Both the position numbers and the translations under genes were made by a program. A stretch of DNA of 33,637 nucleotides from Pseudogymnoascus verrucosus (taxonomy: Eukaryota), in assembly GCA_001662655.1 (NCBI GenBank), contig KV460257.1; one strand, given 5' to 3'. The notes under the pieces were generated by a model. The model searched no databases. It was not told the origin of the DNA and saw nothing but the letters and a program-made list of their open reading frames with translations. Each line of letters starts with the position of its first letter. Positions within the stretch are counted from its first letter, which is position 1. Below are positions 1 through 26,902 of this stretch, piece after piece.

Positions 1-1200
1 GATCCCTCTCGGGTCGAAGTCCGGGTCCCCACCTCTGAGATTAAACGAGACTTCAAATTACAAGTTAAGAGTTATGATGAGGTGGAAGATCCGACCATGC
101 CAACATACGAGCGTCTGAAGAAAGGCAATTTTCCCGTTTCGGAACTTCCAGATAAGCTTCTTGCTCCTGCCAATACGCCATCGACCCCAGTTTTCGATCT
201 CCAGGCAACATTCATTCGTGGTGGCTTGCTACTCTGCATCAAGTGTCATCATGCAGTAATTGATGGAGCTGGTTTGGGTTTGGTTATCAAACTCTTAGCC
301 CAGAATTGCTATCTCCACGCGAACCCTCACATTCCAGGAGAAGCTCCTAGTCTCCCGTCTATGGAACGTTCCGTACTACCCCACGGCTTGAAGGACCCTA
401 GACTCAATGAACTGGGATTCAATATCTTGGTGGGTTCCAAGGGCACCGAAACTGCTGCCATTAAAGAATATGAACCCATGACCTCTCATATCTTCAAGTT
501 TTCGGCAAATTCACTTCGGCAGCTCAAAGCTGCGTGCATTACCAGCTCTGTCAACTTCACTTCCCATGATGTCCTGACTGCACTACTGTATAGTGCTGTC
601 TCTTATGCCAGGTCACTTCGCCTGTCAAAAATCTGTGACCAGAGATCTAGTGTTCCTTCTACCATGGGCATTGCAGTAAACGGGCGACGCCGTCTGAAGC
701 CACCCATGGCCGGTTACGCTGGAAATCTCACCCTCTACGCTGCTTTCTCAAGCCCACTATCGTTACCCTGCGACCCAATACCAAGTGAAAAATCGACAGA
801 TATCACTTATCTCTCAACTAGGCTCAATCTTCCATATCTAGCCAGTCAAACCCACGCCACCGTAGCCTCGGTGACGGAGCCCTACATCTTGTCTACCATG
901 GAACTCGCTTCTTCTCTCTCAGATGTCTCAAAACTGGTCCCATCATTCTCAGATTTCTACCAAGGGACGGACTTTTTCATTACCAGTGGTGCTGACCTAC
1001 CCGTCTTTGATCATGAATGGTGGCCTGGCGGATTCGTGGAGGAGATGAGAATACCATTGAAGGCTCAGTGGGATGGGTCGTGTGCTGTGCTCGCAACAAA
1101 AGATAAGAGTACTGGATTAGATGTGCTACTTGGGTTGAGGGAAGATGATATGCTCGTTGCAAAGCGTATTTTGTTTGCATTTGGTGCCTATATTGTTTAG
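1..1200 (+). CDS. CoA-dependent acyltransferase (Transferase/BAHD-like, Tri101-type), 5' end outside the window
   Basis: Frame is open from base 1 (DPSRVEVRVP...) to TAG at 1198-1200. Shows PVFDLQATFIRGGLLL followed by the catalytic HxxxD motif (CHHAVIDGAG), plus FTSHDVLTALL, AVNGRRRL and YAGN. The usual DFGWG motif is degenerate (DHEWWPG). Confidence 0.85.
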   Translation, partial: DPSRVEVRVPTSEIKRDFKLQVKSYDEVEDPTMPTYERLKKGNFPVSELPDKLLAPANTPSTPVFDLQATFIRGGLLLCIKCHHAVIDGAGLGLVIKLLAQNCYLHANPHIPGEAPSLPSMERSVLPHGLKDPRLNELGFNILVGSKGTETAAIKEYEPMTSHIFKFSANSLRQLKAACITSSVNFTSHDVLTALLYSAVSYARSLRLSKICDQRSSVPSTMGIAVNGRRRLKPPMAGYAGNLTLYAAFSSPLSLPCDPIPSEKSTDITYLSTRLNLPYLASQTHATVASVTEPYILSTMELASSLSDVSKLVPSFSDFYQGTDFFITSGADLPVFDHEWWPGGFVEEMRIPLKAQWDGSCAVLATKDKSTGLDVLLGLREDDMLVAKRILFAFGAYIV

Positions 1201-1260
1201 ATCATTTTGTGGGTCTAATAAAACGCTTTTAGGAGGCGTAAAGCAAACTTATTTCTAAAT

Positions 1261-2192
1261 CTATGACCAAAAAATCAATCTCGGCCGCTCACCCGAAGAC
1301 TTCGCTGGAATCAGCCCCATAAAACTGCTCAACGTCAACCTCGCCCGCTGCTGCCCTGACCTGCCATCCTCCCCAATCTCTGGTTCGACAGGAAAAACTT
1401 GATGCATATTCCTTGAGTTGAAAATGCACAAGTCACCAGGCTGTGGTTGAATAGTAACCTTCTTTCGTCCTTCCACCAGCTTTTCCAGATAACCATAAGA
1501 CGAACGATCCCGAAACTCCATCGCGTCTTCAGTCCACTGACAGTCATGTACTTCGGTCTTACCACCTTTTACCTGTGTCAAGTAAAGGTTGAAAACTGCC
1601 TGCTTAGTCACCTGATTGATGATCCAATCTTCAGTCCGGCTGTCGTAAGGTGACCAGTCGCAGTGGATGGGTGTTGAGTCGTTGATTGCCCGAAAAATTC
1701 CTGAGAAGTACTGCTCGCCGGTCCTTTCTGAGGCGACGGCAACATCGTACTCAGGCAGCAATGAGGCGATTTTGTCGATGATTGTGCGCCATATGTTTTG
1801 CCCCACAACCTTCCTCAGATTCTCATGAAGTTTCTCGTGCTTCTTGGTTTCCAGGAAGTATTGCTCCTTTTCTGTTCAAATCTTAGTCAAGGTTTGCGGG
1901 ATAGGATGGGAACCCTACCATTACCGTCACTGGACCGCTGATTCAGCTGGTCGTCTGATATTGCTTGATACTCGAATTGCGCAACTCCTACTCGTAGAAG
2001 TGTTGGCCCCGGGACGTCGAGATATGGTGATAATTTAGGAGAGAGTTCGTCCTCGACCTTTTGGGCGATGTCACGAGACACGAACTGAGATTCCTTAATG
2101 CATCCCACTTTGCCGTCTAAGACACCAAGTAGGGACTCTCGAACGAATGGCGCTGGGTCTGTATTCTCCCATTGCGAAATGTACGAAGACAT
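1261..2192 (-). CDS. Fe(II)/2-oxoglutarate-dependent dioxygenase (WelO5-like fold, HxD type), about 292 aa, 2 exons
   Basis: Exons 2192-1925 and 1871-1261. Intron 1924-1872 (GTAATG...CTAAG...ACAG on minus) joins the two ORF-track ORFs in frame (SSD-E-KEQYF). Facial triad IHCD...MHQV, PQPGDLCIFN, 2OG-binding Arg in RLTLSSF. ATG at 2192 (MSSYISQW) is preferred over 2297, but this is uncertain. Confidence 0.85.
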
Positions 2193-3798
2193 TTTGTCGT
2201 CTGATATCTTAATAGAGTTCTGGAATACGGGAAGACTTCGGAATTTTGCAGGAGGTAAATCAAAGCAGCGATGCTCTGATGCAGATTTCTGTAGCATGGT
2301 ATCCCCCCTTTTCTGTTTGTTGCCCGTTCCTACGGGCGACTTAAGATAGCAACGCTACCAGCTAGCATTGATCCACTGTCCAGTGACTATAATGGTCCCA
2401 TCAATACTCAATAAAGAAGGTCGATATAATGGTCGCAGATGTTTGATATTTTAATCCGACCAGTACTGAGCTGCAGACAGGGATTAAGGGGAACGGTGTG
2501 AGAGCCAAGAAGTCCATGGATTGCCACTAGTGGAGAAATACGGGGTCCTACTACACCATTGCGCTTTTCCGGGTCCTGGAATATTTCTAAACTGTAACCA
2601 GACTTATTTAAGAGATTCTCGAATGATTTAAGTGACGAATTCCACTTTGAAGACGTCACACTAAATGTGAATTTGGGAGCCCTCAACTCAGTATCAACCG
2701 ACTCTTCCGCTCTTGGGTTGACGGCCTCACAGATTTCACCATGGCGCAAGCTGTACGCACTGCTGTCCTAAGTACAATATCTTCGCCATCAATTGCAGCA
2801 GGAAAGACATCAGAATGGCTTGTTTTGCTTGCAGACAAGCCTGGAGTTGTAAGTAAAGGAGTCTCAATTTCTTGAAGGGCGGGCTAACAACAACAGCTTG
2901 AACGTCGACTTCAGATCCGCCCTGTACACTCCAAAAACTTTGTTCGACTTCATGAAAGCGGCTTCGTATCATGGGCAGGTATGGACTCGGGCTCTTTCCG
3001 CCCTCATGCTTTTGTCCCCTGTTAGCTCCTTTGTCTTGGCGCTAACAGTATCCAGGCCCAGTATTCGAGGAGCACGTTATTGAAGGAACTCGGCCATTCA
3101 TAGGCTCCATCATGGTGGTGAACGCACCAAGTCGCGAAATAGTGAAGGAAACACTTCAAAAAGACATTTTTGTCAAGGAAGGGATCTGGGATTGGGATCA
3201 TGTTCGGATTTTCCCGTTTCGGACAATTTTACGGCAGGCTGCGAGTAAAACCGCTTGAGAATTTGAACATCTTTTGACGCACTCGCATTCATCTCAGATT
3301 CCGTGACTTCGGTTAAATTCTACCATGCACTCTAACCACATTTAAACATCGCGTAGGAAACCCGAGTCCAAGGTCTGAGCGTATTGTCCGCGTGGTTACC
3401 CTCATTTGTCACGGGCGGGGCGTCAGATTAGGGGATGCGCATCATGATGCAACTAAGCATGCCGAGAAGGTGGCTTCCGTATTAAAACCTGTAGAAAGAC
3501 TGATTTCAGAAGCCACATTCCGCGGCGTCATCATGCCATTTCTCTTACCCGAGCAACTAAGATCATAGAGACCTGCCTAATACCGTAAGTACGGTAACAT
3601 CAAAAAAGTTACAAATGGCGGCACCACGATTGCAGCTTGGAATCCGGCCAGCGGATTGCAAAGGCAATCCACAAGGAATGCCTGACGGATAGTCTGATAC
3701 TGCTCAACCCGTGATGTTGACTCGAGAGCACCCAAAGTCCAAAGGTACCAGAACTCGTCCAGAAACACAAAATTATTCCTTATCCCCTTCCGCTAACC
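2193..3798. promoter_or_regulatory. Divergent intergenic region shared by the dioxygenase and the NRPS
   Basis: Head-to-head gene arrangement. TATA-like TATTAAAA at 3480-3487. Several TTCGG half-sites (2237, 3203, 3218, 3308). Individual sites are not verified. Confidence 0.45.
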
Positions 3799-6700
3799 AT
3801 GCCACAAGACTCTTCTCCAGATCTGGATTACTGGATAGATCGCCTTCACGACAAGGACCAATGCATTTTCCCAACTCTCAATGATGGTGTGAAGGAACTT
3901 AATGGGAGACAACGAGTAGATGTCAGAACTCCTGGCCTGGGCCCCTTGAATGAGTTCTGTCAAAACCATGATTTGAAACTATCGACAGTATTCCAAACGG
4001 CGTGGGGCCTGGTACTTCGAAGCTATACTGGAGTTGACGATGTCTGTTTTGGATTCAGGGAAGATCCATCAGAAATTTTGCCTTGCCAAATGAGCCTCAC
4101 ACGGGAAAGTGGCCTTAAGCATGCTTTGGACACGGTGGAAACGACGTTCACACGTGATTCAAATCATAGGACTTGCTCTGTAAAGGATATGGAAGATGTT
4201 CTCAAGCTGGGGCGAACAGGAATTTTTAACACGATTGTCAACTATCGGAATACTTTAGGACCGTTTGGGTCATCGACCTGCAATGGTCAGAGGAATGACC
4301 AGAAAATGCACTGCCACGTAGTCCATGGTGACAGCGACAATGGGAATCACGAGGATGACACGCCAGAGTCGCAGTATATGATTGCAGTCGATATCAAGTT
4401 ATCCCCGAAATTCATATGGATGAGCTTGAGTTACCGACTGTCCGATTTGTCGAAAGGACAGGCAGCAAATGTTGCCAGCTCATTAGAAAAGGCTTTGTCG
4501 TGTGTCTTAAGCGGCGCACAAGAAACGGTGGGAGAACAACATCTGTTCAGTGAGCATCACCAGCGGCAGGTGAATGAATGGAATCGAGATCGCCCGGAAT
4601 GGATAGATTTAACTTTGCACGAAGCGATCGCAACTCGGGTTAGATCGCAGCCAGATGCACCAGCTATCCGTGCCTGGGACGAGGAATGGACTTACCACGA
4701 GATGGACGAGTTGTCGTCAAGACTTGCTCGACATTTGGTCCAAATTGGTGTCAAGACGGGTATGAGAATACCATTGGTATTCGAGAGGTCGGGTTGGTGG
4801 GTGATCGCCCTACTGGCAGTTTCAAAAGCTGGTGGCGCTTTTGTTCCGGTAGATCCCACACAGCCTGTGCTTCGGCTGAAAGAAATCCTTCAGGACATCG
4901 AGCCACAATTCTTGTTATCTTCGAGCCAATATTCTGGGTTGTTAGTAGACTCGGTTGAGACCACAGTTGTGGTATCCCGAGCTGCTTTGGAGGAATTGTC
5001 TTCGAAGACCAGGTCACCTATACCCTTACCCAAGGTTTCTTCTAAAGATGTGGCGTATGTCATGGTACGTGTTTCAGCAGCAAACTCAATTCCTCTTACT
5101 TTTTCAGACATTTCCTCAACCTCTCGTGCTCTAATTGCCTGGCTGTGGCCTAACTGTCTTATAGTACACGAGTGGTTCGACCGGACACCCGAAGGGAGCT
5201 TTATTACAGCATGGAGGGTATCTTCCGGCGTTACTCCATTGGATCGAGAATACATCCCTCGGTCCAGGCACGATGGCACTCCAAGCGAGTTCTTATGCTT
5301 GGTCAGTGTGCATCATCGAAACCATATGTTCTCTGTGGCAGGGAGCATGTTTATGTATCCCGAGTGATTATTCTAAGCATGATGATTTCACTGCAGTTTT
5401 CAACGACATGCAGATCACGTGGGCCATGTTATCACCCTCCGTCATCAAAACTGTCCAAGCAGAGTCTGTTAAATATTTGAGGACGCTGATACTATGCGGA
5501 GAGCCTGTATCACTAGAAGTTGTTTCAAAATGGACTTCAGAAAAAACAAAAGTGTGGGTGGGCTGGGCGGCAACGGAATGTCCTGCTCTTGCAAGGCCTG
5601 ACAATTTCACGGCAAACTCAGACGTACAGAACCTTGGTCCTTGCAAGGCAGTTTGCAGAGTGGTGGAAGTGGGCAATCATGAGCGTCAGGTACCTGTTGG
5701 CGCAGTGGGAGATATAGTTGTCCACGCACCCTGGATAGCAGCAGGTTACCTCAATGACCCAGAAAAAACTGCGGCAACTTTTCTAGATCGCCCAGATTGG
5801 TTGAATGGTAAGCCTTCAAGTTATGGCTCTCGGTGGTACAAGGTTGGTGATTTGGTCCGCCAAAATTCGGACGGAAGCTTGATACTCGCTGGCCGAGGTG
5901 ATAACATGGTCAAGATTAGAGGACAACGATTTGACATGTCTGAAGTTGAGCGAAACCTGGCAGTTGACGACCACATTCGAAATTCCCTGCCAATTCTACC
6001 CAAAGTGGGAGTTTGCAAGCAACGCCTAGTAGCTGTAATTGCGCTGCATGATTTTACGCCAAAACCAGACGAGGGTAAGGATGAAATTACTATTCTAAAG
6101 GGGTCAGAATTGCGGAAAGCAGCTTCGTGGGTGTCAAAGTTTCAAGAGATCTTAGCGAAACGCATCCCATCTTACATGGTACCGAGCGTATGGATTATGG
6201 TGAAAAGCGTTCCACTCACTATTACTGGAAAGATTGACAGAGTCGCATTGAAGCGGTTTGTGGAGAAAATGGATGTCGAAACATACGAGGAGATCTGCAC
6301 GTTGGGAGTTGAGCGAGAGGCCCCAACTACGCCAATGGAGATCCGTCTTCAAAAAATATGGGCAGAGATTTTGGGCCTCCCGTTGGAAAAGGTTGGACGG
6401 AATCAATCTTTCATCAGTCTTGGAGGTGACTCCATCTTGGCCATGACTGTTGGAGCCCGATGCAGGAATAACATGCTCCTGTTGCGTGCGCAAGATATCT
6501 TGAGATTCGGAACAATTGCTGAGGTTGCATTGCACACTACTCCAGTCGAAGACACGACGCGTGACGAGCTTGTTCTAGCTACCCAGTTCGACAGCCTACG
6601 CGGCTCCACCAAGGACAAGTTGCATCAAGTAGGCGTCATGGATATCGCCAACGTTGAAGATGCGTATCCTTGTTCCCCGATGCAACAAGGAATGCTCCTG

Positions 6701-9700
6701 AGCAAGGCCAGATCGACCGGGAACTACAACACATCTACCGTCTTTGAAGTTAGGCCTCGGTCTGTCGTTGCATTAAGTGCCGAAAGGCTTAAAGATGCAT
6801 GGCAGCAGGTTGTTGATCGTCACTCAAGTTTGCGGACTTTCTTTGTGGAAAGCGTGTCGCAGAGTGGGTCATTCGATCAGGTCGTACTCCGAAATTACAA
6901 TACGGCAGCGAGTGTAGTAATCTGGGACCGTGCTAATATCGACCGGACTGAGCATGCTATCCGCATGTTCGATGGCCATCAACCGGAAGCATACGCCAGT
7001 CATCAGCCACCACATCATTTTACAATACTCCACACGACGACTGGTAGGCTCTTCTTCAGAATGAACGTCGAGCACACTCTTGTGGACGGCATGTCAATTG
7101 CCATCCTTGTACGTGACTTGATCACAGCGTACGATGGAAATCTCCGACTTCAACCCACACATTTATACTCCTCATACGTCGCCAGCCTCCAGCAAATTGT
7201 CTGCAGTATTGATAACAAATACTGGAAAACATACCTGGATGGAATGAACCCTTGCCTGCTCCCGAACCTCAGCTACAGCTTGTCACGGGAACCCCAAAGA
7301 CGCGAGTCACGATCACTCAGTGTGGAGATCAAAAATCCGCATCACCTGCTCAAGTTCTGTCAAAGTCAAGAAATGACGTTGTCTGCCCTCTTTCGCACCG
7401 TTTGGGGATTGATTCTTCGAGCTTTTACTAGCTCAGATGAGGTTTGCTTCGGATTCATTACTTCTGGGAGAGACCTTCCCGTCGCAGGCATCGAGGATAT
7501 AGTCGGCACATTCATCAACATGCTGGTCTGTCGTATGAATCTGACCGAGACGAGTCTCTTGAAGGATATAATTGCGACAGCACAGACAGATTACTTGAGC
7601 AGTCTCCCCCACCAACATGCCTCGCTGGCGCAGATCCAGCACGTGCTTGGTCTTTATGGTCAGCGCTTGTTCAATACTTCCATGACAATTCTCAAGGAAG
7701 TTCCTCTGAGTTCGGGGGAAAATCCTAGCGTCGACTTCAATACCATTCATCAATGGTCGCCAAATGAGGTGAATTTTATTTCTCGACCGTATTTCATGTA
7801 TTGCATTTTCTGACAAAATCTATAGTATGATCTTGACGTACAAGTATGGGTTTCAAGTAAGACCGTGAAAATGGAGCTTTGGTACAGAACCGAGTGGATT
7901 TCCAATGAGCATGCGCGGAACATTGCTTCCACGTTTAGCCAAGCGCTAGATGCCATCACGGACGAGCCAGATCAAAGAGTCGGACAGCTGGATCTTTTTA
8001 GCGAACACCATAGGGAGCAAGTGTGGGATTGGAATGCGAGATATCCGGACACAATCCATGCCTGCCTTCACGACCTCGTCACAGAACAAGCACTGAAGCG
8101 ACCTCAAGAGATTGCGGTCCATTCATGGGATCGCGATTTGACATTCAGCCAACTCGAAGCATATGCCGATCGATTAGCTCATTATTTGGTATCTCTTGGA
8201 GTTGGCCCAGAAGTTCATGTATTCCTATGTTTTGAGAAGTCGGCGCTGGCTATTGTGGCAATTTTGAGTGTACTGAAAGCCGGTGGTGTCTGTGTCTCCG
8301 TTGACCCCGCACATCCAACACAACGATTACAACGAATTATCAATGACACCAGACCTCTATCCTGCCTTGTATCTCCCATGCACAGAGGGGTGTTCGACAG
8401 AGAAGGCCTAATTAATCTCGTCCCTCAAGTTGTTACTGTGGAGGAATCCCTTTTCGCTTCTTCTCGACTTGCAACCGTTCCTGCCGGAAAAGCGTGTCCT
8501 ACGGTTGGTCCTAAGAACGCCGCATTTGTGTTATTTACCTCAGGAAGCACAGGTATTCCCAAAGGAATAGTGCATCAACATCAAGCGATCGCGTCATCAT
8601 TGCATGCTCATGGAAATGCGATGCATGTTGGTCTTGACTCTCGCACCCTACAATTTTCCGCCTTCGTTTTCGATGTCAGTATCACCGAGATCTTCCTCTC
8701 CCTTACCCGTGGTGGCGTTCTCTGCGTTCCTTCTGAAGACGAGAGGATGAACAACCTCGAATCAGCAATCGTTCGCATGAGTGCCAACTGGGCGCACCTT
8801 ACTCCGACTGTAGCCTCGCTCCTCAACCCTGAAAAGGTGCCTACTTTAAAGCACATGGCTCTTGCTGGGGAGCCGCTCAAGAAGGTCAATATAACAGAAT
8901 GGGCTGAGAAACTTGAATTGGTGAATCTCTATGGTCCCGCTGAGTGCGCACTTGCCACTACTCTACGGGTAGGGCTGGTCAAGGACGACAGGCCGGACAA
9001 TATCGGGCGAGCTGTTGGATTATTGACATGGCTTGTTGAACCCTCGAATACTAACCGTCTCGTTCCTGTCGGAGGAGTAGGTGAAATCCTCCTCGAAGGA
9101 CCCAATATTGCCCGCGAATACTTAAAGGACAAAGACAGAACGTTGGCGTCTTTCATTGAGAATCCAACATGGTTGCAAGGCGAAAAGACGAGTCCCCCTC
9201 GGCGATTCTACAGAAGCGGGGACATAGCAAGGTACAATGGGGATGGGTCTATTCAAATCCTAGGTCGAATGGACACTCAAGTCAAGCTATACGGACAGCG
9301 TGTGGAGTTGGGCGAGATTGAGTATCAGTTGAAACTGAACCTCTCGAACCAAAAGCTTGTGAATTTAGCCGTCGTATATGCGAATTCCCCGGAACATCCA
9401 GGTGGCGGGCTACTGGCGTCTTTCTTGGAATTCGAGCAAAAGGCATCTGAGGTCGATCAGAATCAACTCATGGTCAAGATATCCCAGGAATTAAAAACAC
9501 TTCTAGTCAGGTTGGACGTTCATCTCGCAGATGCTCTCCCTTCATACATGGTTCCATCCATTTATGTACCGTTGAACGCCATGCCACTACTAACTGCCGG
9601 GAAGATTGACAGAGGCCGACTCTCACGCATTGTCACTCAACTTTCCACCGAGCAAGTGAAGTTATACTCCTTATCCGAATTCCAAGAAGACAAAGGCAAG

Positions 9701-12700
9701 CCTCGAACGAGAATGGAGAGGGCACTGCATTCACTTTGGGCCCAAGTCCTCAATATCGATGGCAGCTCTATTGGAGTTTATGACAGCCTCTTTAGACTCG
9801 GGGGAGATTCGGTCGTGGCAATGCGCCTGGCAGCTGCCGGCAGAGAGGCTGGAATCACCATCCCGGTTGCGAGCATATTCCAATATCCCAAGCTTTCCGA
9901 AATGGCAGCGATCGCGAAGCCGCTGAGCGAGAGGACCTTTCAAGAGCTCGAGGCACGGTACAAAGTTAGGAGGGATATGGTCCAGCATATTTATCCATGT
10001 TCCCCACTTCAAGAGGGCCTTATCATACTATCAAGCAGGCAAGCGGACACATATGTGATCCAGCGCGCATTCAGATTATCATTCGAGACGGATGTGGAGA
10101 AGTTTCATGCAGCTTGGGAGGCCATCTACAAACAACACGCAATTCTTCGCACTCGAATCATCCATGTGGAAAAGACTATCGGCTCCATGCAGGTTGTTAT
10201 AGATGGAAGTATTCGGTGGCGTTCAGCGAGATCTTTGGAAGCTTATTTAAAGGAAGACAAATCAAGTCCCATAGATTATGGGGAGCCGTTAACGAGATAC
10301 GCCATGGTGGATGACCATGAAGGAAAGCGATTCTTCGTTTTCACAGCACATCACTCCGCTTTTGACAGCCAGTCTCTTTCGACGCTTTTCTCCGAAGTCA
10401 CAAAGGCGTACGAATCACTTGTCTCTCTACGAGAATTGACCGCCTCAGACACCACACCTTACAAAACATTCGTCGAGCACATTTTCAATGCTGATATCTC
10501 GGCGGCCGAGTCATTCTGGAAGGACCAGTTTTCTGGTCTAAATTTTTCGACTTTTCCCAAACTGCTGGCAAATCAACATCCATTGGCGGACCATACTTTG
10601 GACTACTCCATGAAGCTCCCAAGATCTGTCAATGAGCTCGGAAGTTCTGTTTCAATGATTATTCGCGCGGCTTGGGCATTGCTTTTAGCGCAGTATTCCG
10701 ATTCCCCAGAAAATGTTGTGTTCGGCATGACTTTAGATGGTCGGGATGATTCTCAGTCAGTGCCTGGCATTGCCACAGTCTTAGGTCCCACCATAGCAAC
10801 GGTCCCCGTCAGAATATTCATCAACACCAAACACACAATTGGAGACTTCCTAGAAGAAACCCAAGCTCAGGCTGATGCTATGAGACCATTCCAGCATTTT
10901 GGTTTGCAGAATATCAGGGCGCTCAGTCCTGATGCCGCAAAAGCCTGTGACTTTCAAAGCTTGCTAGCTATCCAGCCCTTGCGCAAAGAGGGTGAAAATC
11001 ATCCCACCCTGCTGAGCGATTATGTTACCACACGAGATGCGTCTTCGACATACCTACTTCTCTTGGAATGCCAATTGAAAGAGAATGGAGTGGATATTAC
11101 GGCACAATATGATCAAAAGATTACATCAGACTCGCAGATGCAGAGGATCTTGCACCAGCTCGAACACGTGATCAAACAATTGTTGGCCGAAGACGCAAGT
11201 ACTAAGCAGCTGAGGGAAATCCAGTTCTACAGCCCTCAAGACGCGAAGGACATGCATTCGTGGAATCAATCACTTCCACCGTTGCAAGATACTTGTGTTC
11301 ATGATGTCATCGCTAAGCATGCAGCTCTACGTCCAGGTGCAATGGCAGTATGTTCGTGGGATGAAAACCTGAGTTACCATGAGCTTGACGAGCTTTCAAC
11401 AACCCTTGCACATCACCTGGTGACGGCATTCAATATTGGTCCTGAATCGCTGGTGCCGCTGTGTTTCGCTAAATCTGCATGGGCTGTGGTTGCTATGATT
11501 GCGGTGCTAAAAGCTGGAGGAGGATATGTTCCTATGGATCCTTCCCATCCCACTTCACGTCTGCAAGAAATCGTTGAAGCAACGCGAGCTTCAGTCATTC
11601 TTTGCTCACCTCAATACGAGGCTCTCAGTCGATCCTTAGCTGGAAACTCATTTATAGTCAGCCGAAAGACCCTGAGCTACTGCAAAGCATCCGAGGGCGC
11701 AGCATGCACCACTGTCAAACCGAACAATGTGGCCTACATAATATTTACAAGCGGCTCTACTGGCACTCCAAAAGGAATCGTAATGGACCACGGAGCATTC
11801 TGTATCGCTGCGACCGAGCATGGAAAGCGTACCAATCTGAACTCTGAGTCTCGTGTCATACATTTCTCATCCTACGCGTTTGAGGCCTGCATCCTGGAGG
11901 TATTGACAGCTCTCTTCAATGGAGGCTGCGTCTGTGTCGCACCAGAATCCGAACGCTTGGAAGGCATTGCCAAGACTATGAGAGATCTCCATGTCAACTG
12001 GGCGTTCTTTACGCCGTCGTTCATTCGCACAATTCGCCCTGACCAAGTACCCGATCTGAAGACGCTAGTCTTAGGTGGTGAAGCTTTAGGAGCAGACAAC
12101 ATAGAGGTTTGGGTCGACCATTGCTACTTGGTGAATGGGTACGGCCCTTCGGAGACTTGTGTCTTCTCTGTAATCAATAACAATGTGCGTCGAGGCGACA
12201 CACCAGACTTGATTGGCAGCTCTGTTGCAGGAGCATGTTGGATTGTGGACCCCGAAGATCATCGTAAATTGGTGCCACTGGGATGTGTTGGAGAACTGTT
12301 AATCGAAGGCCCCACCCTAGCTCGTGGTTATCTCAACGATCCAGACCGGACTAACCAAGTATTCGTTGAAAATCCCGAATTGCTGTCTCGAGGCCTAGAG
12401 ATCCACGGAGGAAGGACCAATGGAGCAAAAGCGAATGGTCATCCTGACGGATACATCAATGGGAAATTGACGAACCGATCGACAAAGGGCACAGCAGGCC
12501 ACACGGCTTTGAATGGTCAATCAACTGGGCGGCGGATGTACAAGACAGGAGATCTTGTATGTTACGATACTTCGGGCAATGCAGATGGTTCCATCAGATT
12601 TGTTGGAAGGAAGGATACGCAAGTCAAAGTTCGTGGCCAACGCATGGAGCTTGGAGACATCGAACACCATATGAAATCGAACCTGAAGAGTATCCAGCAT

Positions 12701-15700
12701 GTCGCTGTCGAGCAAGTTGGACTAGAAGGACGTGAGAATCGCTACCTGGCAGCATTCTTCTCTTTGGAGGGCCAAGCTCTACCACCCACACGAGGAAGAG
12801 AGAGACAGCTCCCCATGTCTATGTCACGTGATTTAAAGGCTTCGATCGTGGCTGTAGAAGCAAGGCTTGGGGAGACTCTGCCTTCCTATATGATTCCGAC
12901 ATTCTATGTGCCCCTTTTAAGAATGCCTCTATTATCTTCAGGTAAGACAAATCGACGAGAACTGCGTCAAATTGCCGCTCAATTATCAGAGGCTCAGATT
13001 AGTCAATATTCCCTCGCAGATGGGCAAAAGCGAGCGCCTAATACTGAGAGGGAGATAGCGCTGGTTAAGCTTTGGGCCTCGATTTTTCAAGTTAGCCAGG
13101 AAACAAAGATTGGTCTCGATGATAGCTTTTTCAGACTTGGTGGAGATTCCATAGCCGCGATGCGTTTGACGTCCCTCGCCCGCGAAAAAAAGATATTGCT
13201 CACTGTAGCCGAAATATTCAAGAATCCTCGTCTAGAGGACATGGCTGCAAGCAGTCTATCACTGAGTGGAAATGAAGATACAAAGATGGAGCCCTTCGTA
13301 TTACTTCGAGAATCTGCAAATGTGGATGAGCTATTGCGAAAGATACAAAGACAATACCAAATCACAAAGGAGGTCATCGAGGACGCTTTCCCAGTGACTC
13401 CACTCCAGGAAGGACTTATGTTGTTGTCGATCAAGCAACCAGGATCTTACATGAGTCAGATAACCTTGAGTTTACGACCAGATGTCGACATCAACCATTT
13501 CAAAGCCGCATGGCAAAGAACAGCAGAGAGGAACTCCGTTCTCAGGTCTCGATTTGCACATACTGGATCCCAGACAATTCAACTTGTGATGGAAGAAAGT
13601 ATTGACTGGCGAACAGGATCAGATTTGGAGACGTACCGACTCCGCGACAAGAAAGTTCAGATGGAACTTGGAAAGCCCCTAACTCGGCATGCGATTATCG
13701 ATGCAGGTGGCGATGAGAGATACTTCGTTTTGACCGCACACCACTCCCTGTATGATGGCTGGTCTTTGATGCTTATCATGGAGGAACTCGACCACTTGTT
13801 TACAGGTGGACCTGTGAAGCCAGCTGCGCCTCCCTATGCTACCTTCATCAAGCACTTAAGAAACATCGATCTAGATGAGGCAAAGTCTTTCTGGCAGGCT
13901 CAATTTTCAAACAAATCCCTCTCTAGCTTCCCTGAACCAAGATCTGTCACTCAAGCTACTGCAGAAACATCAATCGTCAAACTTACGGAAATAACCAGAC
14001 CGGCCGGATCTGATATTACTTTGTCTACCGTAATGAGAGCAGCGTGGGCTCTTCTGGTGGCTAGATACGCCAGTACAGATGATGTCTTCTTTGGAGCCAC
14101 TCTCATGGGCCGGAACGCTTCTTTACCCAACATCGAGAGAATGACTGGACCGACAATTACCACTGTACCGGTTTGCGTGTCAATTGACGGGTCCCAAACC
14201 ATCGATAAATTCTTGGACCAAGTTCAAAACCAGGCGACAGAGATGATTCCGTTCGAGCATACAGGACTTCAAAATATCAAACGCATTGGGCCAGAGGCAG
14301 AAAAAGCATGCAATTTCCAGAACCTCCTTGTAATCCAACCGGAAGGCTCCGAAGATATTAAGAGCAACCTCTGGAAAGAAAGTGCCTTGTTTGCGAAAGG
14401 AGAAATGGTGACACTCACGTACGCTTTGATCCTGGAGTGTAGACTATATAAGGATAAAGTCAGAATCACTGCCCAGTACCGAGATAATATCATTACCACC
14501 AGTCAGATGCAGCGAATGGTCCATCAATTCGAGCAAGTCATGCACAAACTCAACGACGCAATCCCAGGTGTCCGAACAGTTAACAGTATTGAGGTCTTCA
14601 GCAAGAATGACATGGACGAAGTTTTAGAGTGGAATAAGGAAACATCGGTGCTTTCCAACTCCAAGGACTGTATCCATCACACCATCGAACGTCAAGCGAT
14701 CCAACGACCACACGCACAGGCCGTAGACTCTTGGGATACGAGTTTTACATATGCTCAGCTCAACAAACTGTCGGACAAGCTAGCCCATCATCTGAGTGCT
14801 TTAGGTCTCGGCCCTAACCAATTCGTTCCATTGTGCTTCGACAAGTCAGCATGGACCATCGTAGCGATTTTGGCTGTATTGAAAGCAGGTGGTGCATACT
14901 TGTCATTGGATCCTAAGTATCCTATAAATCGAAATAACCATATCATTCAAGATGTCGAGGCCAAGGTTATTCTTACAGGAAGTCAGCATCAAAAACTATT
15001 TGACCCGTCAGCATATTATGTTCTGGTTGTCGATCGGGAGTTTATCGAGAGTCTCTCGGACCCGAAAGCTAAACAGTCTAATTTTAGAAGCCCAAATAAT
15101 GCGGCTTTCATAGTCTTCAGTAACCCAGCCCCCTTTTACCACCACGTTTCAGCATCAAAGCTAACAACATTCAGCTTCAGGGTCTACCGGCGAACCCAAA
15201 GGAATTGTAATGGAGCACGGAGCATTCTGTAGCAGCTCTCGGGAGCATTCCAAAGCGTTGCTCATCAACTCAGAGTCCAGGGTAATGCAATTTGCAGCAT
15301 ACAGCTACGATGTCAGCATGGGAGAAATCCTCACAACGCTGATGCAAGGTGGTTGTGTATGCGTCCCATCGGAAGAAGATCGGATGAGCAGACTGGCAAC
15401 GTCCATAAATGCACTTAAAGCCAATTGGATCTTCTTGACGCCAACCGTTGCTGGGTTCCTTCAGCCTGACGAGGTTCCTGGGTTGAAGGTTCTAGTACTT
15501 GGAGGAGAACATGCCACGGCGGATAACATTAAAACATGGTCAGAAGTGCTCCATCTCATTAATAGTTATGGTCCGGCTGAGTGTGCAATCTGGTGCGCGT
15601 GTACAACAGGCCTGAGCTTGGATGCGGACCCAGCGAGCCTTGGCAAGTCCGTGGGTGCATCTATCTGGATTACCGATGCCACTGATCCTAACAAACTGGC

Positions 15701-18260
15701 TCCTATCGGCTGTGTTGGCGAGCTTCTTGTCGAAGGGCCAACCCTCGCACGTGAGTATCTCAACGATGTGAAGAAGACTGCAGCGGCCTTTATAGAGAAT
15801 CCAGAGTGGTCAAATGATGGATTAGGAAGGCGCAGACGGATGTACAGGACAGGTGATCTCGTGCGATATGGATCTAATGGGAACATCCTCTTCGTTGGCC
15901 GCAGAGATACCCAGGTCAAACTCCACGGACAGCGAATCGAACTCGGCGAGATTGAACACCATGTGATGAGATACAGTCCACCGGGCTGGTTTCCAGTCGT
16001 CGACATACTTCGCTTCTCTGAGGGTGAGAGAGACGCCGCTATATCTGCGTTTATTCAGGTCCGGAAAGTCTCAAATGATAACCCAACTTCGGGCGAGATA
16101 ACTCTTCCTGTGACGGAGACCATGAACACTGCTCTGAACCAGTTACGGTCGGAACTTGAGCAAGTTTTGCCAACCCACATGATCCCGGCTGCCTATATTC
16201 TAGTCCGGCAAGTACCACTTACAGCCGGTGGAAAGGTAGATAGGATGGCGCTGCGAAAGATCGGTGAAAGCTTGACCGACCATCAGCTGCTTCCATATTT
16301 GCTAGCTGGTCAAGGGGCCTTGCGGGCTCCGTCAACCGAGACAGAAAGAAGACTTCAAAAACTATGGGCTAAGGTGTTAAATATGAGCGAGGACTCGATT
16401 GGGTTGGACTCTAACTTTTTGCGGATCGGAGGCGATTCGATTGCTGCAATGAGATTGTCTGCCATCGCGCGAGAAAACGGGCTACTGTTGACGGTGAAAG
16501 CGATCTTCACGTCGCCAAAGCTGGATGACATGGGCAAGAATACCACCCCGATCTCATCGGTTCAGGGATCAGAAACAACTTACACCCCCTTCTCATCGCT
16601 AAGAGTTCCTGATGCCGCTGCATTCCTTGAAAAGATCATTCATCCCCAACTTCCAAGCGTGGGCGAATTTGACGAAATCGAAGACGTACTCCCCGCGACC
16701 GACTATCAACGCTGGACCTTAGGATGCGGGCAACTGAAAACCAGAGGGTATAACAATTACTTCATTTTCCATATGAGAGGTCCTGCGGATCCGCAACGAA
16801 TTCAGTCCGCCTGTCAGCAGCTCATCGACCATCATCCTGTCTTACGTACTGTGTTTGTTACTCACAAGCACCAACTTTTCCAGGTCGTTTTGAAGCATGT
16901 CCAAGCTGAGTTCACACAGTACGAGGCCCTAGACATCTTGGGGTTTTTACAGTCGGTTTTGGAGAGCGATATGCGGCGACCTGTGGATCTTAATAATCCC
17001 AGTATTCGATTTCTTCTAGTAAAACAAGGCCCGGATGAGTACCGATTGATGATGCGAGCGTCCCATTCCCAATACGATGGCATATCACTACCAATATTGT
17101 TACGAGATCTAAAGGCTGCTTACCTCGGAGAGAGCTTCTCGAGTAGTTTGCCATACTCTAGGTTTATTCATGGTTCATCACGTGTGATGAAGGTGTCCGA
17201 TGCGGAAGCCTTTTGGCGAAAAGAGTTAAAAGATTCGACAATGACCAATATCTTATCCCATACAAAGCCAGCCTATCGCAACCCTGTCAATACATCTCTC
17301 AAACAGGTTATTCAGGTCAATTCCGCACTTTCAGGAGGCATCACTTTCGCCACCATCTTCAAGGCTGCATGGTCCCTGGTTCTGGCACAATTCTCTGCCA
17401 GCTCGGATGTGGTCTTTGGGCAGATCTCCACCGGGAGAAATGCTCCAATCCAAGGTATTGATCAGGTAGTGGGACCTTGCATGAACCTTCTTCCTGTTAG
17501 AGTCAAAATAGACTCAGCGTCAACCTTCAGAGATCTTCTCCGGCAAGTTCAAAGTCAGCATCTAGATATGTCGCCATACGAAACTCTCGGCTTCCAACAT
17601 ATTATTGAAAAATGCACGAGCTGGCCAAAATGGACCCGATTCAGCTCCATACTCCAGCACACAAACTTCAACAGCGGCATGGGTGACGTCGACATATGGG
17701 ATAATATTGAAATGAAACTAGGCAGCTTTACCCCTGATCATGATGTGTCTGATATCTGGATCTGGACGGGCCCATCTGATGATGGGTTTTCGATCGATTT
17801 CACCTACTCAAGTGAAGCTGTGTCTGAGTCCTTGGCCCAAGGAATGCTCGATAAACTCTGTGACACAATCCTGAAAATTACTAAGAATCCGGAGGCTTCT
17901 ATCTTTTCGGTCCTCTCAAAAATTCAACCGAAGTTTCCATCGTCGCTTGCCAACGAGAAAGCCGATCGGGCTGGGAACTTCTTCCATCCAGAATACATCT
18001 CAGGCGGGCCGTTGGAATCAATTGTGGAGAAGGTCTGTGGTAGCGTCTTTGGTGACGAAAACGATAAATTACCCGTCAGTGTCACCATAGACACACCTTA
18101 TTTCGAATTGCGCGGGGACCTCATCGCTGCTACCCAATTATCGATGGCTTTCTGCACTTTCAACTTCCAGGTTTCGCCTGAGGACATTATCGACAATCCT
18201 ACGATGCGCCTTCAAGCTGCAATGCTAAACGCCTTAAATATCTCGTTATTCTCTAAGTGA
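3799..18260 (+). CDS. Four-module nonribosomal peptide synthetase, about 4749 aa: halfC-A1-T1-C1-A2-T2-C2-A3-T3-C3-A4-T4-CT-T*(inactive)
   Basis: Exons 3799-5064, 5165-7768, 7826-15119, 15175-18260 (14250 nt). Introns 5065-5164, 7769-7825 and 15120-15174 all have GT..AG ends and CTAAC/CTGAC branch sites, and restore YVM-YTSGSTGHPKG, SPNE-YDL and VF-TSGSTGEPKG. Four A3 P-loops. GGDS serines at 6431, 9809, 13148, 16437. C active sites EHTLVDG (7070), HHSAFDS (10349), HHSLYDG (13739), SHSQYDG (17061). An alternative short 5' exon from ATG 3714 (intron 3745-3808 or 3745-3820) is also in frame, so the exact start is uncertain. Confidence 0.95.
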
Positions 18261-19106
18261 GTCCTTGAAAGAGATCATTGAATCTCCTGTGCATATAAAA
18301 GAGCTTTTAATTTCCTAAAAGACGCAAATGCTCTGTTTACCCATTTTGGTATCCAGTCGCAATGCGTTACAGCTCTGCAACTCATAGAAAATGCATAATA
18401 CGGTACTATTTAAGGCAAGAGATTTTTATATGGGCTAGCTAGGTGCAACGTAAGTTGTGGCGTAACGCTGCTAGTGGCGTGATACCTTTAAATCTTAACC
18501 ACAGTTAACTGAGAACTTAAATTACTTAACAATGGTATGGGTTAAATTAGAATCAAGTTGCAGTTCTTAGGGTACTCTCACGTGCTGCAAGCTAGAATAA
18601 TCGGTTAATATTAGAGTTGCCACCTAAACTGTCGAAAATATCAGAATTGTCACCCTGTAAGTTAACTATTAAAGCACATTCTGAAGAAGACATACAAAAG
18701 GCAATAACTAGCTGGAAAGATAGATAGTTTTCATCTATACGGGCTATAGCAATACACTTTCAAGTTTCACACACTGCGCCATCGAATGGCCGGACGTAAA
18801 ACAAAGTTTAGCGGGGTTGCACAGCCGTAATGGTGACGGAAGCCGGTATTATTAAGTTAGTGGTCGTCTAGTGCCTCTACGTCACTGCCATCGGAACATT
18901 AGCATATCGTTACGGCGAGATAAACAGCACTATGCGATAAGTCACATAGCGCGTGCAAGCAGCATTTCATTTCGTTTCCCCTATCTTCCTTATAGGCTAG
19001 TTGGCTTCTTATTCTCTTCTCAATCCGCCCGTTCATACTCTTGATAAGAAGCTCAGCAACCGAACACTCCCCATCTACCCACTTTGCCGTATCTAATCCT
19101 AGAAAA

Positions 19107-21940
19107 ATGTCAGCCACAACCACGGCTCATTGTGCATCTCACCCTGTGGGCCTTAAGAGTAACTTCAAGCATCCTTTCAAATTTCTACACGAGAAGCTTC
19201 AGCCAAAAATCAACAATGTTAAAGTTGCTTTCAGTCACAAAAGGTGAGCACGCCAGAGTAGCACCCAATTTGTGCATGGCTTAGCGTGGCCCAGACACGA
19301 GCTTGGAAAGTTGGGGAATACAGTATGCTTGACCAGACACACATTACTCCGCCTCTCCTAATAGATTAGTTCAATCCCAACCATCGTCATGACGAAAAAC
19401 ACGAGAAAATCACCGACGACAAGAGAACAAGGATTAGCAGCGGTCATCCATTTCAATCTTTTGCACCCGAGCGCCCTGGGAACGATGTCAAGTGGTATGT
19501 CGATGGACGGGACTATTACTGGGTGTGTACAGCTCAAATATCACACACGGGATCGTGAATCTGATTGTAGCAGGCAGTCTCAATTGCTCTAGAGCGCGCG
19601 AAAGAGACCATATATATTGAGGATTGGTGGCTTTCTCCCGAGTTATTCATGCGAAGACCTCCATGCTTCAACCAAGAATGGCGGCTGGACCAGATTCTAA
19701 AGCGTAGAGCAGAAGCGGGCGTCAAGATATACGTGATAGTCTACCGCGAGGTCGAGGTTATTATACAGGTCAAGATGTGGCATGCCCTACATTGCTAACA
19801 TTGCGCCAGGCTGCTCTTACATGCAACTCCAAACACACAAAGCAAGTCCTTCAAGGAATCTGCCCTGTAGGAAGCAAGGGATACGGCAATATCGTGGTCA
19901 TGCGCCACCCAGACCACAACCGTTTCGAGAACGCTGCAGACAGGACCTTATATTGGGCTCACCACGAGAAATTCGTGGTTATTGACTATCACACAGCCTT
20001 TATTGGCGGTCTTGATCTCTGCTTTGGGAGATGGGATACTCATCAACATCCGCTTGTTGATGTGCACCTAGGAGGAATTTTCAACGAAATCTGGCCAGGT
20101 CAGGACTTTAACAACAATCGCGTGATGGATTTTCAGAATGTCGAGGAGTGGAAATCTAACGCGCTGTCTAAAGCTGAGTATGGACGTATGCCATGGCATG
20201 ACGTTGCTATGGGGGTCCTAGGACCCTGTGTGGTCGATATTGCAGAACATTTTGTTCTACGATGGAATCTCATCAAGAGGGATAAGTACAAACGGGACGG
20301 CAGGTACAATTGGTTGATTATGGAAGGTCGAGATGGGCGTGATGAGGACCTAATTGGAGTTCAGAGACCGAATTTTCCTGTTGGGGAATACGTCTCTCAT
20401 CCGCTATCTCCACTGAGCAGCAAGGCTCTGGGTAACCGAGGCACTGTTCATGCTCAAGTTGTTCGAAGTAGCTCCGATTGGTCCAGTGGTATCTTGACCG
20501 AACACAGCATTCAGAATGCATACAGTGAAGTGATCCGCAACGCACAGCACTACATCTACATTGAGAATCAGTTTTTTATCACTGCCACCGGGGATAAGCA
20601 GGCGCCTATCAAAAATACTATAGGGAAAGCGATCGTGGAGGCAGTGGTGCGAGCCGGGCGAGAAGGTCGGAAATTTCGTGTCATTGCAGTTATCCCGGCC
20701 ATACCCGGATTCACAGGTGATCTCCGACATGGTGTGGCGGTGGGAACAAGACGTGGTCCTGAGGTGGGAACGAGAGCAATCATGAATTATCAATACCAGT
20801 CCATCTGTCGGGGAGAGCAATCTATTTTCGAGCAAATTAGAGCCCAGGGCGTGGACCCTGCTCAGCACATTTTCTTCTTCAACCTTCGCTCCTACGATCG
20901 CCTAAGGGCTACAACGGCTCTTGAACCGCATGGGGGAAAGCATGGTGTCAAAAACCGGGAAGTTCAAATGGCCGAGGCACAGCAAACTACGGATTCAGGG
21001 ATTCACAGTGCAGGAGACCAAGGAGGAGACCTGGGTAGGCATATACCTAATTATGGGGACTACGACGAAGAAAAGAGGACAAACGCAAAGCGCAGGCATG
21101 AGACAGCAGAAGAGCCAGTTGGCTCTAATCGCGCAACAGAGAGGACACAGAGCGTCGCCAAGAACGCGATGTACCAAATGCCAAAGCTCGAAGATGAGCT
21201 CCAGGGATGCAACACGATAGGGGAAGTAGATAGCTGGGTCCAGGAAGAGTTGTATATCCACGCAAAGCTCCTGATCGCTGATGACAGGACTGTCATTTGT
21301 GGCAGCTCAAATTTAAACGATAGATCCCAACTAGGATCTCGTGACAGCGAGCTTTCTATTGTCATGACGGATACGGAGCCGCTCGAATCGAAAATGAACG
21401 GACAGGAGTTTGTAGCGGGGCGCCATGCTGCCACACTCCGACGGTATTTGTGGAGAGAACACCTAGGTCTCCTGCCACCGCAAGATTTAGACGCCAGAAG
21501 AGAGGCAAATGCGCAACCGCCGGGCATACCAAACGATCCTCACCAAGGCGACACCTATGAATTCGTGGGTGATCCTCTCGGTAACGAGGTCTGGCATATG
21601 TGGACGTCGCGCGCCACTCAGAACACCAACGTTTTCAGCGAGCTATTCCACGCTGACCCCGACAACTCCGGTAAGCATATCCTCTCCCTTTCATGTGTCT
21701 CACAGTTAACGACCTGCGCTCGAAGTCAAAACCTTCAAAGATTACGACAAATACCTCCCTGCAAAGGGTACTAAGGCAGGACATGTATACGATCGGACCC
21801 TGCCACGTAAAGACATACTCCGCAAGCTAGACCTAGTTAAAGGGCATCTCGTGTGGATGCCTCTGGAATTTTTGAAGGACACGCCGATGTCCGAACCAGG
21901 CATCCAGTTCAATTCCTTGACAGACTATGTCTATACCTAG
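19107..21940 (+). CDS. Phospholipase D (short fungal type without PX/PH region), about 858 aa, 6 exons
   Basis: Exons 19107-19243, 19295-19322, 19370-19522, 19574-19756, 19810-21670, 21726-21940. Motifs FAPER, KWYVDGRDYYW, DWWLSPEL, two HKD motifs (HHEKFVVID, HAKLLIAD), GGLDLCFGRWD, PWHD, YIYIENQFF, GSSNLNDRS, RDSE. Confidence 0.92.
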
Positions 21941-23721: not shown

Positions 23722-23835
23722 TATCCGTTTTCAGGACGCGAGAGCAATCGTTACAAACTGTAAGTTGATCATTATAGGCTTTCTGCTACATTTACAGGCC
23801 ATAGTGGCGGAGAATCGGTTCCTCATCACCACTTC

Positions 23836-26890: not shown

Positions 26891-26902
26891 CTTTTGTGTA
26901 AA

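Follow-up and report, generated by a model that had tools for sequence, protein, structure and literature searches.

The first 18,260 nucleotides of a 33,637-nucleotide stretch of DNA from Pseudogymnoascus verrucosus (contig KV460257.1 of assembly GCA_001662655.1; the whole stretch is called the window below) encode a large non-ribosomal peptide synthetase (NRPS) together with a small group of neighboring genes. Our best explanation for positions 1-18260, which we hold with somewhat better than even confidence, is that they carry the conserved four-gene core of an uncharacterized ascomycete non-ribosomal peptide cluster. The core consists of a TRI101-like acyltransferase, an Fe(II)/2-oxoglutarate (Fe/2OG) oxygenase, a YCII-like gene and a four-module NRPS. 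The small product is probably ring-shaped, hydroxylated and acylated, and made of four units. The locus is a conserved orphan NRPS cluster, which a group of fungi living in soil or associated with plants have in common, and the kind of system is one that is already known, with a few unusual details.

Pfam matches of the open reading frames outline the locus. The stop-to-stop frame 1-1200 on the plus strand, open at the left edge of the window, matches TRI-like_N and Transferase; the minus-strand frames 1261-1875 and 1887-2354 match WelO5 and 2OG-FeII_Oxy; and four long plus-strand frames within 3721-18260 match solely Condensation, AMP-binding and PP-binding. The acyltransferase and oxygenase genes are convergent, with 60 bases between their stop codons (which end at 1200 and 1261), and the oxygenase (minus strand) and the NRPS (plus strand) point apart. 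Both arrangements had been given in a preliminary description of this DNA, which also spoke of three intact, tightly linked genes. The linkage holds, since the neighbors are found together in other genera as well, but the acyltransferase is cut by the window edge and is thus not intact, and the YCII-like gene, overlooked in that description, is a fourth member.

Domain Organization of the Synthetase

The NRPS gene (3714..18260, plus strand; exons 3714-3744, 3809-5064, 5165-7768, 7826-15119 and 15175-18260) encodes a predicted protein of 4756 aa. Its domain order is C*-A1-T1-C-A2-T2-C-A3-T3-C-A4-T4-CT-T*, where A, T and C are adenylation, thiolation (carrier) and condensation domains, CT is a condensation-like domain near the end, and C* and T* are a half condensation domain and a carrier-like domain, respectively. 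Module 1 (4621..6538) consists of A1 (4621-6268, with intron 5065-5164 inside) and T1 (6311-6538). It is followed by C2-A2-T2 (6641..9925; C2 motif EHTLVDG, intron 7769-7825 inside), C3-A3-T3 (9968..13255; C3 motif HHSAFDS) and C4-A4-T4 (13358..16550; C4 motif HHSLYDG, intron 15120-15174 inside). The CT domain (16653..17915) comes after T4 (16323-16550).

Four A-T modules without an epimerization (E) or methyltransferase (MT) domain had been proposed for this protein, and the same picture emerges here. There are four A domains and four Ser-bearing T domains, each with the motif GGDS, and exactly one C-like domain follows each T and is itself followed by an A domain, except in the case of CT, so that none is left over as a candidate E domain. 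No methyltransferase family was found in the Pfam matches of any NRPS frame. The protein also has no T-C start, but the incomplete domains at its two ends had been missed. The half condensation domain at the N-terminus (3809..4584, plus strand) covers only positions 194-454 of the Condensation profile and is without HHxxxDG. This half domain also begins nine of the ten orthologs described below, and the model of the tenth is without the region. At the C-terminus, the carrier-like domain (17958..18257, plus strand) scores 23.7 bits against the PP-binding cut-off of 20.8 and reads RGDL from 18111, without the phosphopantetheine Ser. The motif is degenerate, Ser included, in all ten orthologs (RGD followed by L or M in nine, RSDH in Drepanopeziza).

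A terminal condensation domain with the motif SHxQYDG had also been described, and SHSQYDG does start at base 17061. It aligns with SHSQWDG of TqaA, the fumiquinazoline F synthetase, and is kept in 10/10 orthologs. The CT domain of TqaA is an experimentally studied fungal macrocyclizing domain. Among solved structures it is the best match to the CT domain of the window NRPS (5DLK/5DIJ/5EGF, E 6.3e-39, residues 8-419 of 421), and the best ordinary chain-extending C domain follows at E 2.9e-29. As expected of a TqaA-type CT, the domain is the last catalytic one, stands directly after the last Ser-bearing T and keeps the catalytic His.

Three of the introns (5065-5164, 7769-7825 and 15120-15174) are short, have GT..AG borders and restore adenylation core motifs. 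A model that begins at ATG 3799 has 4749 codons with a single stop at its end, and differs at two residues from the 4749-aa hypothetical protein V499_01170 of Pseudogymnoascus sp. VKM F-103 (P0001 in our set). A fourth intron, 3745-3808, removes this database start codon; it corresponds to a contig joint at 3741/3806 (+3) in sequencing run X19. An ATG further upstream, at 3714, follows a stop and is joined in frame by the 3745-3808 splice; it places the NRPS start ten residues earlier, giving 4756 aa. The domain reading is the same for both models. We also note that the Q at residue 3, kept in most ortholog models, coincides with a CAG/AAG acceptor site. The public ortholog models may share a mis-start.

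Run X19 is one of four sequencing runs that were compared with the region. The other three are DNA-like, come from related strains and cover the whole region at 95-99% identity; one of them (X8) ceases to match at 18276, just past the NRPS stop. Run X19 is taken to be RNA, a kind that was guessed and is not on record. Seven of its eight contigs match the window at 99% identity or more. Its GT..AG joints at 2848/2897 and 2975/3053 (+3) correspond to the two introns of the YCII-like gene, and one contig ends precisely at the NRPS exon border 15119. Unspliced contigs lie on oxygenase exon 2 (1303-1469 and 1600-1800). The cluster is apparently transcribed.

Substrate Codes of the Adenylation Domains

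The ten pocket positions of each A domain, numbered by the GrsA convention, were read by anchoring on the core motifs, and the reading of A1 was checked by alignment to LgrA, in which the Ser of A1 is paired with the Asp of the FD motif. Asp235 binds the alpha-amino group of the substrate. A1 (code SVIMICGALK) has Ser at this position (codon at base 5303), and WAATE replaces YGPTE. Among the orthologs, position 235 of A1 is Ser or Thr in seven and a gap in three, probably through gene-model errors, and it is never Asp. Because A1 has Ser or Thr where Asp235 would bind the amine, unit 1 is probably no ordinary alpha-amino acid, which bears out the earlier proposal of at least one non-standard unit. 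Among the orthologs, A1 is conserved like the other A domains (mean pairwise identity of 66.1%, versus 66.4-71.1%), which argues that it is under selection.

The codes of A2 (DVTHAALLAK), A3 (EALFVGGVFK) and A4 (DVGFVGSIWK) are nearly or fully invariant in all ten orthologs. Glu occupies position 235 of A3 (codon at base 11882) in every one of them, which suggests an unusual amino acid or linkage for unit 3. In the literature searched, we found none of the four codes, nor the hydroxy-acid, anthranilate and aminoadipate codes with which they might be compared. A1 may resemble such Asp-less hydrophobic codes, and Glu235 of A3 may be comparable to the aminoadipate domain of ACV synthetase.

Among the condensation domains of the orthologs, C3 (9968-11245) is the most divergent, with 48% mean pairwise identity versus 65-67% for the others. 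Its motif has a variable last residue and no Gly, HHS(A/I/V)FD(S/K/R/Q/N).

Oxygenase, Acyltransferase and YCII-Like Gene

The oxygenase gene (1261..2192, minus strand) has two exons, exon 1 from 2192 to 1925 or 1919 and exon 2 at 1871-1261, and encodes about 292-294 aa. It matches the Pfam family WelO5 (E 9.1e-07; 29.1 bits against a cut-off of 27). The codons of the metal triad lie at 1665-1663 (His), 1659-1657 (Asp) and 1404-1402 (His), and the corresponding residues H161, D163 and H248 do not vary among 46 aligned oxygenase homologs. The AlphaFold model (pLDDT 94.1, pTM 0.92) predicts a double-stranded beta-helix fold with the HxD/E...H triad. Its top Foldseek matches are WelO5 (TM 0.66-0.71) and next SadA (3W20, TM 0.53), with a probability of 1.00 for both. 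At the sequence level, the sole solved protein matched is SadA (3W20/3W21, E 0.0099), with the HxD and the second His aligned.

The window oxygenase thus has a fold in common with both the WelO5 halogenase and the N-acyl-amino-acid hydroxylase SadA, but its identity to them is just 12-14%, and its metal motif is HxD where the halogenase has HxG. In halogenases the carboxylate ligand is replaced by Gly or Ala (HxG/A), which leaves a site for chloride. Asp163 is invariant in the 46 homologs, so that the halogenase motif is absent. Because the triad holds Asp rather than Gly or Ala, the enzyme should hydroxylate and not halogenate.

The start at 2192 is favored over one at 2297, as homologs are 283-294 aa long and related strains have 1- and 8-base indels between 2203 and 2304. 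Two possible donors of the intron (1872-1924, minus strand), GTAATG and GTAGGG, are both in frame and differ in position by 6 bases. A database homolog (P0121) uses the second donor, adding Gly-Asn; the site has no RNA contig cover.

The acyltransferase is represented in the window by the 3' part of its gene (1..1200, plus strand; residues 67-465 of 465), with 399 codons inside and 66 to the left. This part matches TRI-like_N (2.1e-17) and Transferase (1.2e-12). A full-length database protein (P0239, 465 aa) is 100% identical across the window part and scores 91.9 and 59.2 bits for the two families, respectively. The HxxxD motif reads HHAVID from base 250 (residues 149-154). The two family matches and the catalytic HxxxD together place the enzyme in the BAHD/TRI101 group. 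In this protein, the stretch corresponding to the DFGWG motif reads DHEWWPGG (1009-1023). The nearest solved relatives are Tri101 structures (2RKT/2RKV, E 1.2e-14, spanning residues 8-275). The window enzyme resembles Tri101, the trichothecene 3-O-acetyltransferase, in its Pfam families, its HxxxD and its best solved relative, but the match is limited to residues 8-275, DHEWWPGG stands for DFGWG, and the gene lies next to an NRPS rather than in a terpene cluster. TRI101-type enzymes are O-acetyltransferases.

Between the oxygenase and the NRPS lies a gene for a small YCII-like protein of 130 aa (2741..3258, plus strand; exons 2741-2848, 2897-2978 and 3056-3258). Its spliced frame is open, and its GT..AG joints are those seen in the X19 contigs. 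The Pfam match of frame 3046-3258 is sub-threshold, with exon 3 alone scoring 22.6 bits against a cut-off of 24. A database protein of the same length and exon joins (P0257, 130 aa), 89% identical across exon 3, reaches 35.6 bits against the same cut-off, over profile positions 3-94. All three exons are kept in two metagenome contigs (tblastx), described below. We place the predicted protein at the family level only.

Orthologs and Conserved Linkage

To find orthologs of the NRPS, its largest exon (2431 aa) was used as the query. Of 2063 candidates, 1367 matched at E<=1e-30; the matches listed are the best 120. Ten ortholog clusters are 61-100% identical across the full query, and the next best protein among the matches listed is 49% identical. 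Besides the VKM F-103 protein, the orthologs come from Pseudogymnoascus VKM F-4246, Phialocephala, Leptodontidium, Acephala, Phlyctema, Cadophora, Rhynchosporium, Drepanopeziza and Talaromyces atroroseus. All ten are labeled "hypothetical," "uncharacterized" or "Carrier domain-containing." The corresponding searches with the oxygenase and the acyltransferase gave 118 matches among 183 candidates and 18 matches among 8000 scored, respectively.

Locus tags and shared contig sizes place these genes side by side in at least seven Leotiomycete genera, and two metagenome contigs do the same. The tags of core genes are neighbors in Drepanopeziza (L3040_002829/002830/002832), Phialocephala (PAC_20131/PAC_20134), Leptodontidium (740196/740198) and Rhynchosporium (transferase RSE6_11867 and NRPS2 RSE6_11869). 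In Phlyctema they are PVAG01_05832/05834, with the acyltransferase on a contig of equal size. All three genes of Acephala are on contigs sized 340217, the NRPS and acyltransferase of Cadophora MPI-SDFR-AT-0126 are on contigs sized 1468114, and in Leptodophora the oxygenase and acyltransferase are neighbors (016819/016820). Because the same genes neighbor each other in several genera, the linkage exceeds chance; conserved linkage, whose absence had been named earlier as a reason to reject the cluster, was found.

Metagenome contigs scanned with the oxygenase alignment gave 18 loci, five of them on contigs shorter than 5.4 kb and some of them mutual repeats (L003-5, L011-12 and L014-15). The two near-identical loci L011 and L012 (contigs of 212 and 281 kb) have the order NRPS-YCII-oxygenase-acyltransferase, and both order and orientation are as in the window. 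Their identities to the window are 52% for C*-A1, 66-73% for C2-A2, up to 78% for the best segment of the oxygenase and 53-55% for the acyltransferase. Their A2 code is the same as in the window, and their A1 code is the variant TPIFMALNL. Past the acyltransferase these loci carry genes for a cytochrome P450, for a second, AATase-like acyltransferase and for an AMP-binding ligase, and for this reason the cluster probably continues to the left of the window, as the preliminary description had also supposed; an oxidoreductase and an acyl-CoA ligase lie on the same side in Rhynchosporium. In a further locus (L001), the oxygenase and acyltransferase are tail to tail.

Some NRPS gene adjoins the oxygenase relative in seven of the 18 loci (L002, L008, L009, L011, L012, L013 and L016). 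In L013 (14-709 and 10001-11027), an NRPS otherwise unrelated to that of the window (31-38% identity) adjoins an oxygenase homolog with 48% identity. One A-domain pocket of this NRPS, DVSFVGSIW, equals that of A4, DVGFVGSIW, at 8/9 positions. This is a single hint that the oxygenase family may travel with an A4-like residue.

The only ortholog outside the Leotiomycetes is that of Talaromyces atroroseus (P0010, UA08_06365), which at 63% identity is as near to the window as the Helotiales proteins are. In the NRPS tree it is sister to the Leotiomycete clade on a short branch (clade SH-aLRT 81%). This could reflect either a patchy distribution or an old transfer, and the tree is not decisive.

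Comparison with Known Systems

We assign the NRPS to an unnamed ortholog group, which is its true family and includes Rhynchosporium NRPS2 (RAG0_06072, RSE6_11869) and Phialocephala PAC_20134, with 61-64% identity over the 2431-aa query. In the available part of the Phialocephala genome paper (2016), PAC_20134 is given as C-A-T-C-A-T-C-A-T-C-A-T-C-T, without a product. This published order agrees with that of the window NRPS, the final C-T included. The Rhynchosporium genome paper (2016) names the ortholog NRPS2 (its supplementary file 7 lists RAG0_06072 under NRPS2), again without a product. In that file a transferase lies two genes ahead of NRPS2 (RSE6_11867, which is also among the acyltransferase matches), with an oxidoreductase and a long-chain fatty acid (LCFA) acyl-CoA ligase further upstream; these upstream genes are "no Cluster" rows by SMURF and MDM. 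After NRPS2 come a major facilitator superfamily (MFS) transporter, an F-box gene, a transcription factor and, five genes downstream, PKS12, a hybrid of NRPS and polyketide synthase (PKS). The right flank therefore differs from that of the window, which has a gene for phospholipase D, kinase-like genes and an F-box gene. The Rhynchosporium F-box gene lies two genes after NRPS2; that the window also has an F-box gene does not imply orthology.

Among characterized enzymes, TqaA shares with the window NRPS the terminal CT, the aligned SHSQ(Y/W)DG motif and the best solved match. TqaA reportedly has three modules and an E domain with the CT at the end, and its first A domain is said to be without Asp235 and to take anthranilate as the first unit. 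The window NRPS, by contrast, has a fourth module, lacks an E domain, begins with a half C and carries a Ser-less T beyond the CT, but it would work in the manner of a TqaA-type, CT-terminated synthetase. The synthetases of HC-toxin/apicidin and of tentoxin likewise have four modules and a terminal C-like domain, but the domains that define them, the E domain in HC-toxin/apicidin and the N-methyltransferase in tentoxin/enniatin, are absent here, and a protein named "HC-toxin synthetase-like" is only 35% identical to the window NRPS. Emericellamide-type systems are similar in that an acyltransferase adjoins the NRPS and, in relatives of the window cluster, an AMP-binding ligase adjoins it too. 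They differ in that the window NRPS starts with C*-A-T and not T-C, the window has no PKS, the acyltransferase is of the TRI101/BAHD kind and the ligase is found in relatives only. The preliminary description had set the cluster apart from all three of these types on the same grounds (no E domain, no MT domain, no T-C start), and we agree.

Two groups of known products were considered and rejected, based on the available parts of their sources. The omnipolyphilins, chlorinated cyclotetrapeptides of the helotialean Polyphilus sieberi, contain D-Tyr, four alpha-amino acids and chlorine on tyrosine, which does not fit a synthetase without an E domain, an Asp-less A1 and an oxygenase of the hydroxylase type. 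The onychocins of Aspergillus hancockii are N-methylated. In the accessible part of the Pseudogymnoascus australis genome paper, we found no match for the cluster.

The open-access literature searched contained neither a product nor a later characterization of the cluster; MIBiG was outside the comparison. The earlier description of the cluster as an orphan is thus upheld at the level of literature and protein names, in that all ten orthologs are without a functional name and two genome surveys report no product.

Proposed Biosynthesis and Alternative Explanations

In the scheme that we favor, the NRPS would build a four-unit chain colinearly, with the units joined by C2-C4. For unit 1, loaded by A1, an acid that is aryl, hydroxy or N-blocked is most likely. 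The other three units would be amino acids, with unit 3 recognized via Glu235 of A3. Release by the TqaA-like CT would take place through an intramolecular attack and yield a small macrocycle (a lactam or a lactone). The oxygenase would hydroxylate a residue or the peptide, and the acyltransferase would esterify a hydroxyl, with an acyl donor that probably comes from the acyl-CoA ligase which, in relatives, sits just left of the window-equivalent region. The two incomplete domains, the initial half C and the final Ser-less T, would be non-catalytic remnants retained for structure. The ring, the hydroxylation and O-acylation of the peptide, the substrates and the order of tailoring are all inferred, and a building block could just as well be the substrate of the oxygenase and acyltransferase.

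Several observations weigh against this scheme. An all-L tetrapeptide ring of 12 members would be strained in the absence of epimerization or N-methylation, and the scheme needs a lactone, a longer unit 1 or 3, or a non-cyclic release. Because of this strain, a lactone is more plausible than an all-L lactam, and so is a ring that is enlarged by unit 1 or unit 3. The A1 code varies among the orthologs (SVIMICGALK, TVIIICCIFK, TPIFMALNLK), and unit 1 may therefore differ between species. Fungal specificity codes predict substrates poorly, and the picture of the substrates of all four A domains, and of the product, is drawn from sequence rather than from chemistry. The oxygenase family also occurs away from this NRPS, with 11 of the 18 metagenome loci having no NRPS in the DNA covered. 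No oxygenase or acyltransferase from Talaromyces atroroseus or VKM F-4246, both of which have the NRPS, is among the matches listed (for the acyltransferase, 8000 candidates were scored). The signs of transcription come from a run only guessed to be RNA, at depths of 2-4.5, and its contigs leave the acyltransferase uncovered, which says nothing either way. Finally, as the comparison did not include MIBiG or antiSMASH, a characterized relative could have been missed.

The main rival to the favored scheme, although unlikely in our estimate, is that the oxygenase and acyltransferase supply a building block. In this case an amino acid would be N-acylated, hydroxylated by the SadA-like oxygenase and loaded by the Asp-less A1, and the resulting N-capped peptide would be released by the CT via a side chain or the new hydroxyl. 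The Ser at position 235 of A1 is consistent with such a substrate, and oxygenase relatives adjoin unrelated NRPS genes in five further loci of the 18 (L002, L008, L009, L013 and L016), as would suit a part linked to peptide units. SadA is the sole solved match at the sequence level and the second-best fold family. In the available part of the SadA paper, the enzyme is described as hydroxylating C3 of N-substituted L-amino acids, for example N-succinyl-leucine. Identity to SadA in the structural alignment is only 14%, however, and the WelO5 fold is closer. WelO5 acts on a free indole alkaloid. TRI101-type enzymes are known for O-acetylation, which speaks against the N-acylation step. The Asp-less, all-hydrophobic code of A1 would also suit a fatty, polyketide or aromatic unit 1, supplied by A1 itself or by the ligase and acyltransferase of the relatives. 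This would give a capped tripeptide or lipodepsipeptide, by a logic like that of emericellamide or of the anthranilate-primed TqaA. The AMP-binding ligase and second acyltransferase that adjoin the cluster in L011/L012, the Rhynchosporium LCFA acyl-CoA ligase upstream and PKS12 downstream of NRPS2, and the CT domain, whose nearest solved relative TqaA starts with anthranilate, all point in this direction. We nonetheless regard lipid or aryl priming as improbable, given that there is no PKS or ligase in the 15 kb right of the NRPS, that the NRPS is without the T-C start of the emericellamide synthetase, and that SMURF and MDM left the upstream Rhynchosporium genes outside the cluster.

Two further explanations concern the status of the cluster rather than its chemistry. 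That it has already been characterized under an unconnected name seems very unlikely to us. The comparison did not extend to MIBiG/KnownClusterBlast and the literature searched was open-access only, which leaves some room for this; against it, none of the ten orthologs has a functional name, the next relatives among the matches listed are at most 49% identical, and searches on locus tags, codes, genera and cluster features led to two genome surveys without a product. The genes could also be chance neighbors that do not work together, as many fungi that lack this NRPS have oxygenase homologs (43-59% identity). This is the explanation to which we give the least credence, and it is already disfavored by an order and orientation that are kept across genera in which NRPS identity is only 52-73%.

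Beyond the favored scheme, a bolder proposal, which we would not expect to prove correct, is that the products of the cluster family, small acylated macrocycles, form a structural class of their own that is new, with two units out of four that are not ordinary alpha-amino acids. Unit 1 would possibly be an N-acyl-beta-hydroxy amino acid made by the acyltransferase and the SadA-like hydroxylase, and unit 3, selected by the Glu235 A domain, would perhaps be joined through a side-chain carboxyl or a beta/gamma-amine; such a linkage would relieve the ring strain without a D-residue. The Ser-less T would have a structural part in release. Among the Helotiales that have retained the cluster are root endophytes and leaf pathogens, the barley scald fungus being one of them, and the product could therefore act in plant association.

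Genes to the Right of the Synthetase

Beyond the NRPS, the window continues rightward with a gene for phospholipase D (18996-22274, plus strand), a kinase-like gene (23162-24684, minus strand) and an F-box gene (25790-27115, minus strand), none of them obviously biosynthetic. Further right is a gene for a fungal-type protein kinase (28028-30090, plus strand), whose Pkinase_fungal matches (3.3e-86 and 1.8e-30) are split over frames. An in-frame TAG (29554-29556) lies between the two contiguous frames, and the gene may be a pseudogene or contain an unrecognized intron. We found no PKS anywhere in the window, and no ligase in the 15 kb of it that follow the NRPS.

Implications

Fungal genomes hold many orphan NRPS clusters, and another one is unsurprising. 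What gives this cluster some practical value is that it is kept across at least seven Leotiomycete genera and Talaromyces atroroseus, with a compact four-gene core and signs of transcription, and that it combines a TqaA-like cyclizing domain with two atypical A domains and no epimerase. These features make it a tractable target for heterologous expression, which could yield a new small macrocycle. Such work could add the Ser/Thr235 and Glu235 pockets to a fungal specificity code that is poorly populated. Rhynchosporium NRPS2 and Phialocephala PAC_20134, which have long been listed, would also be linked to a product in this way.

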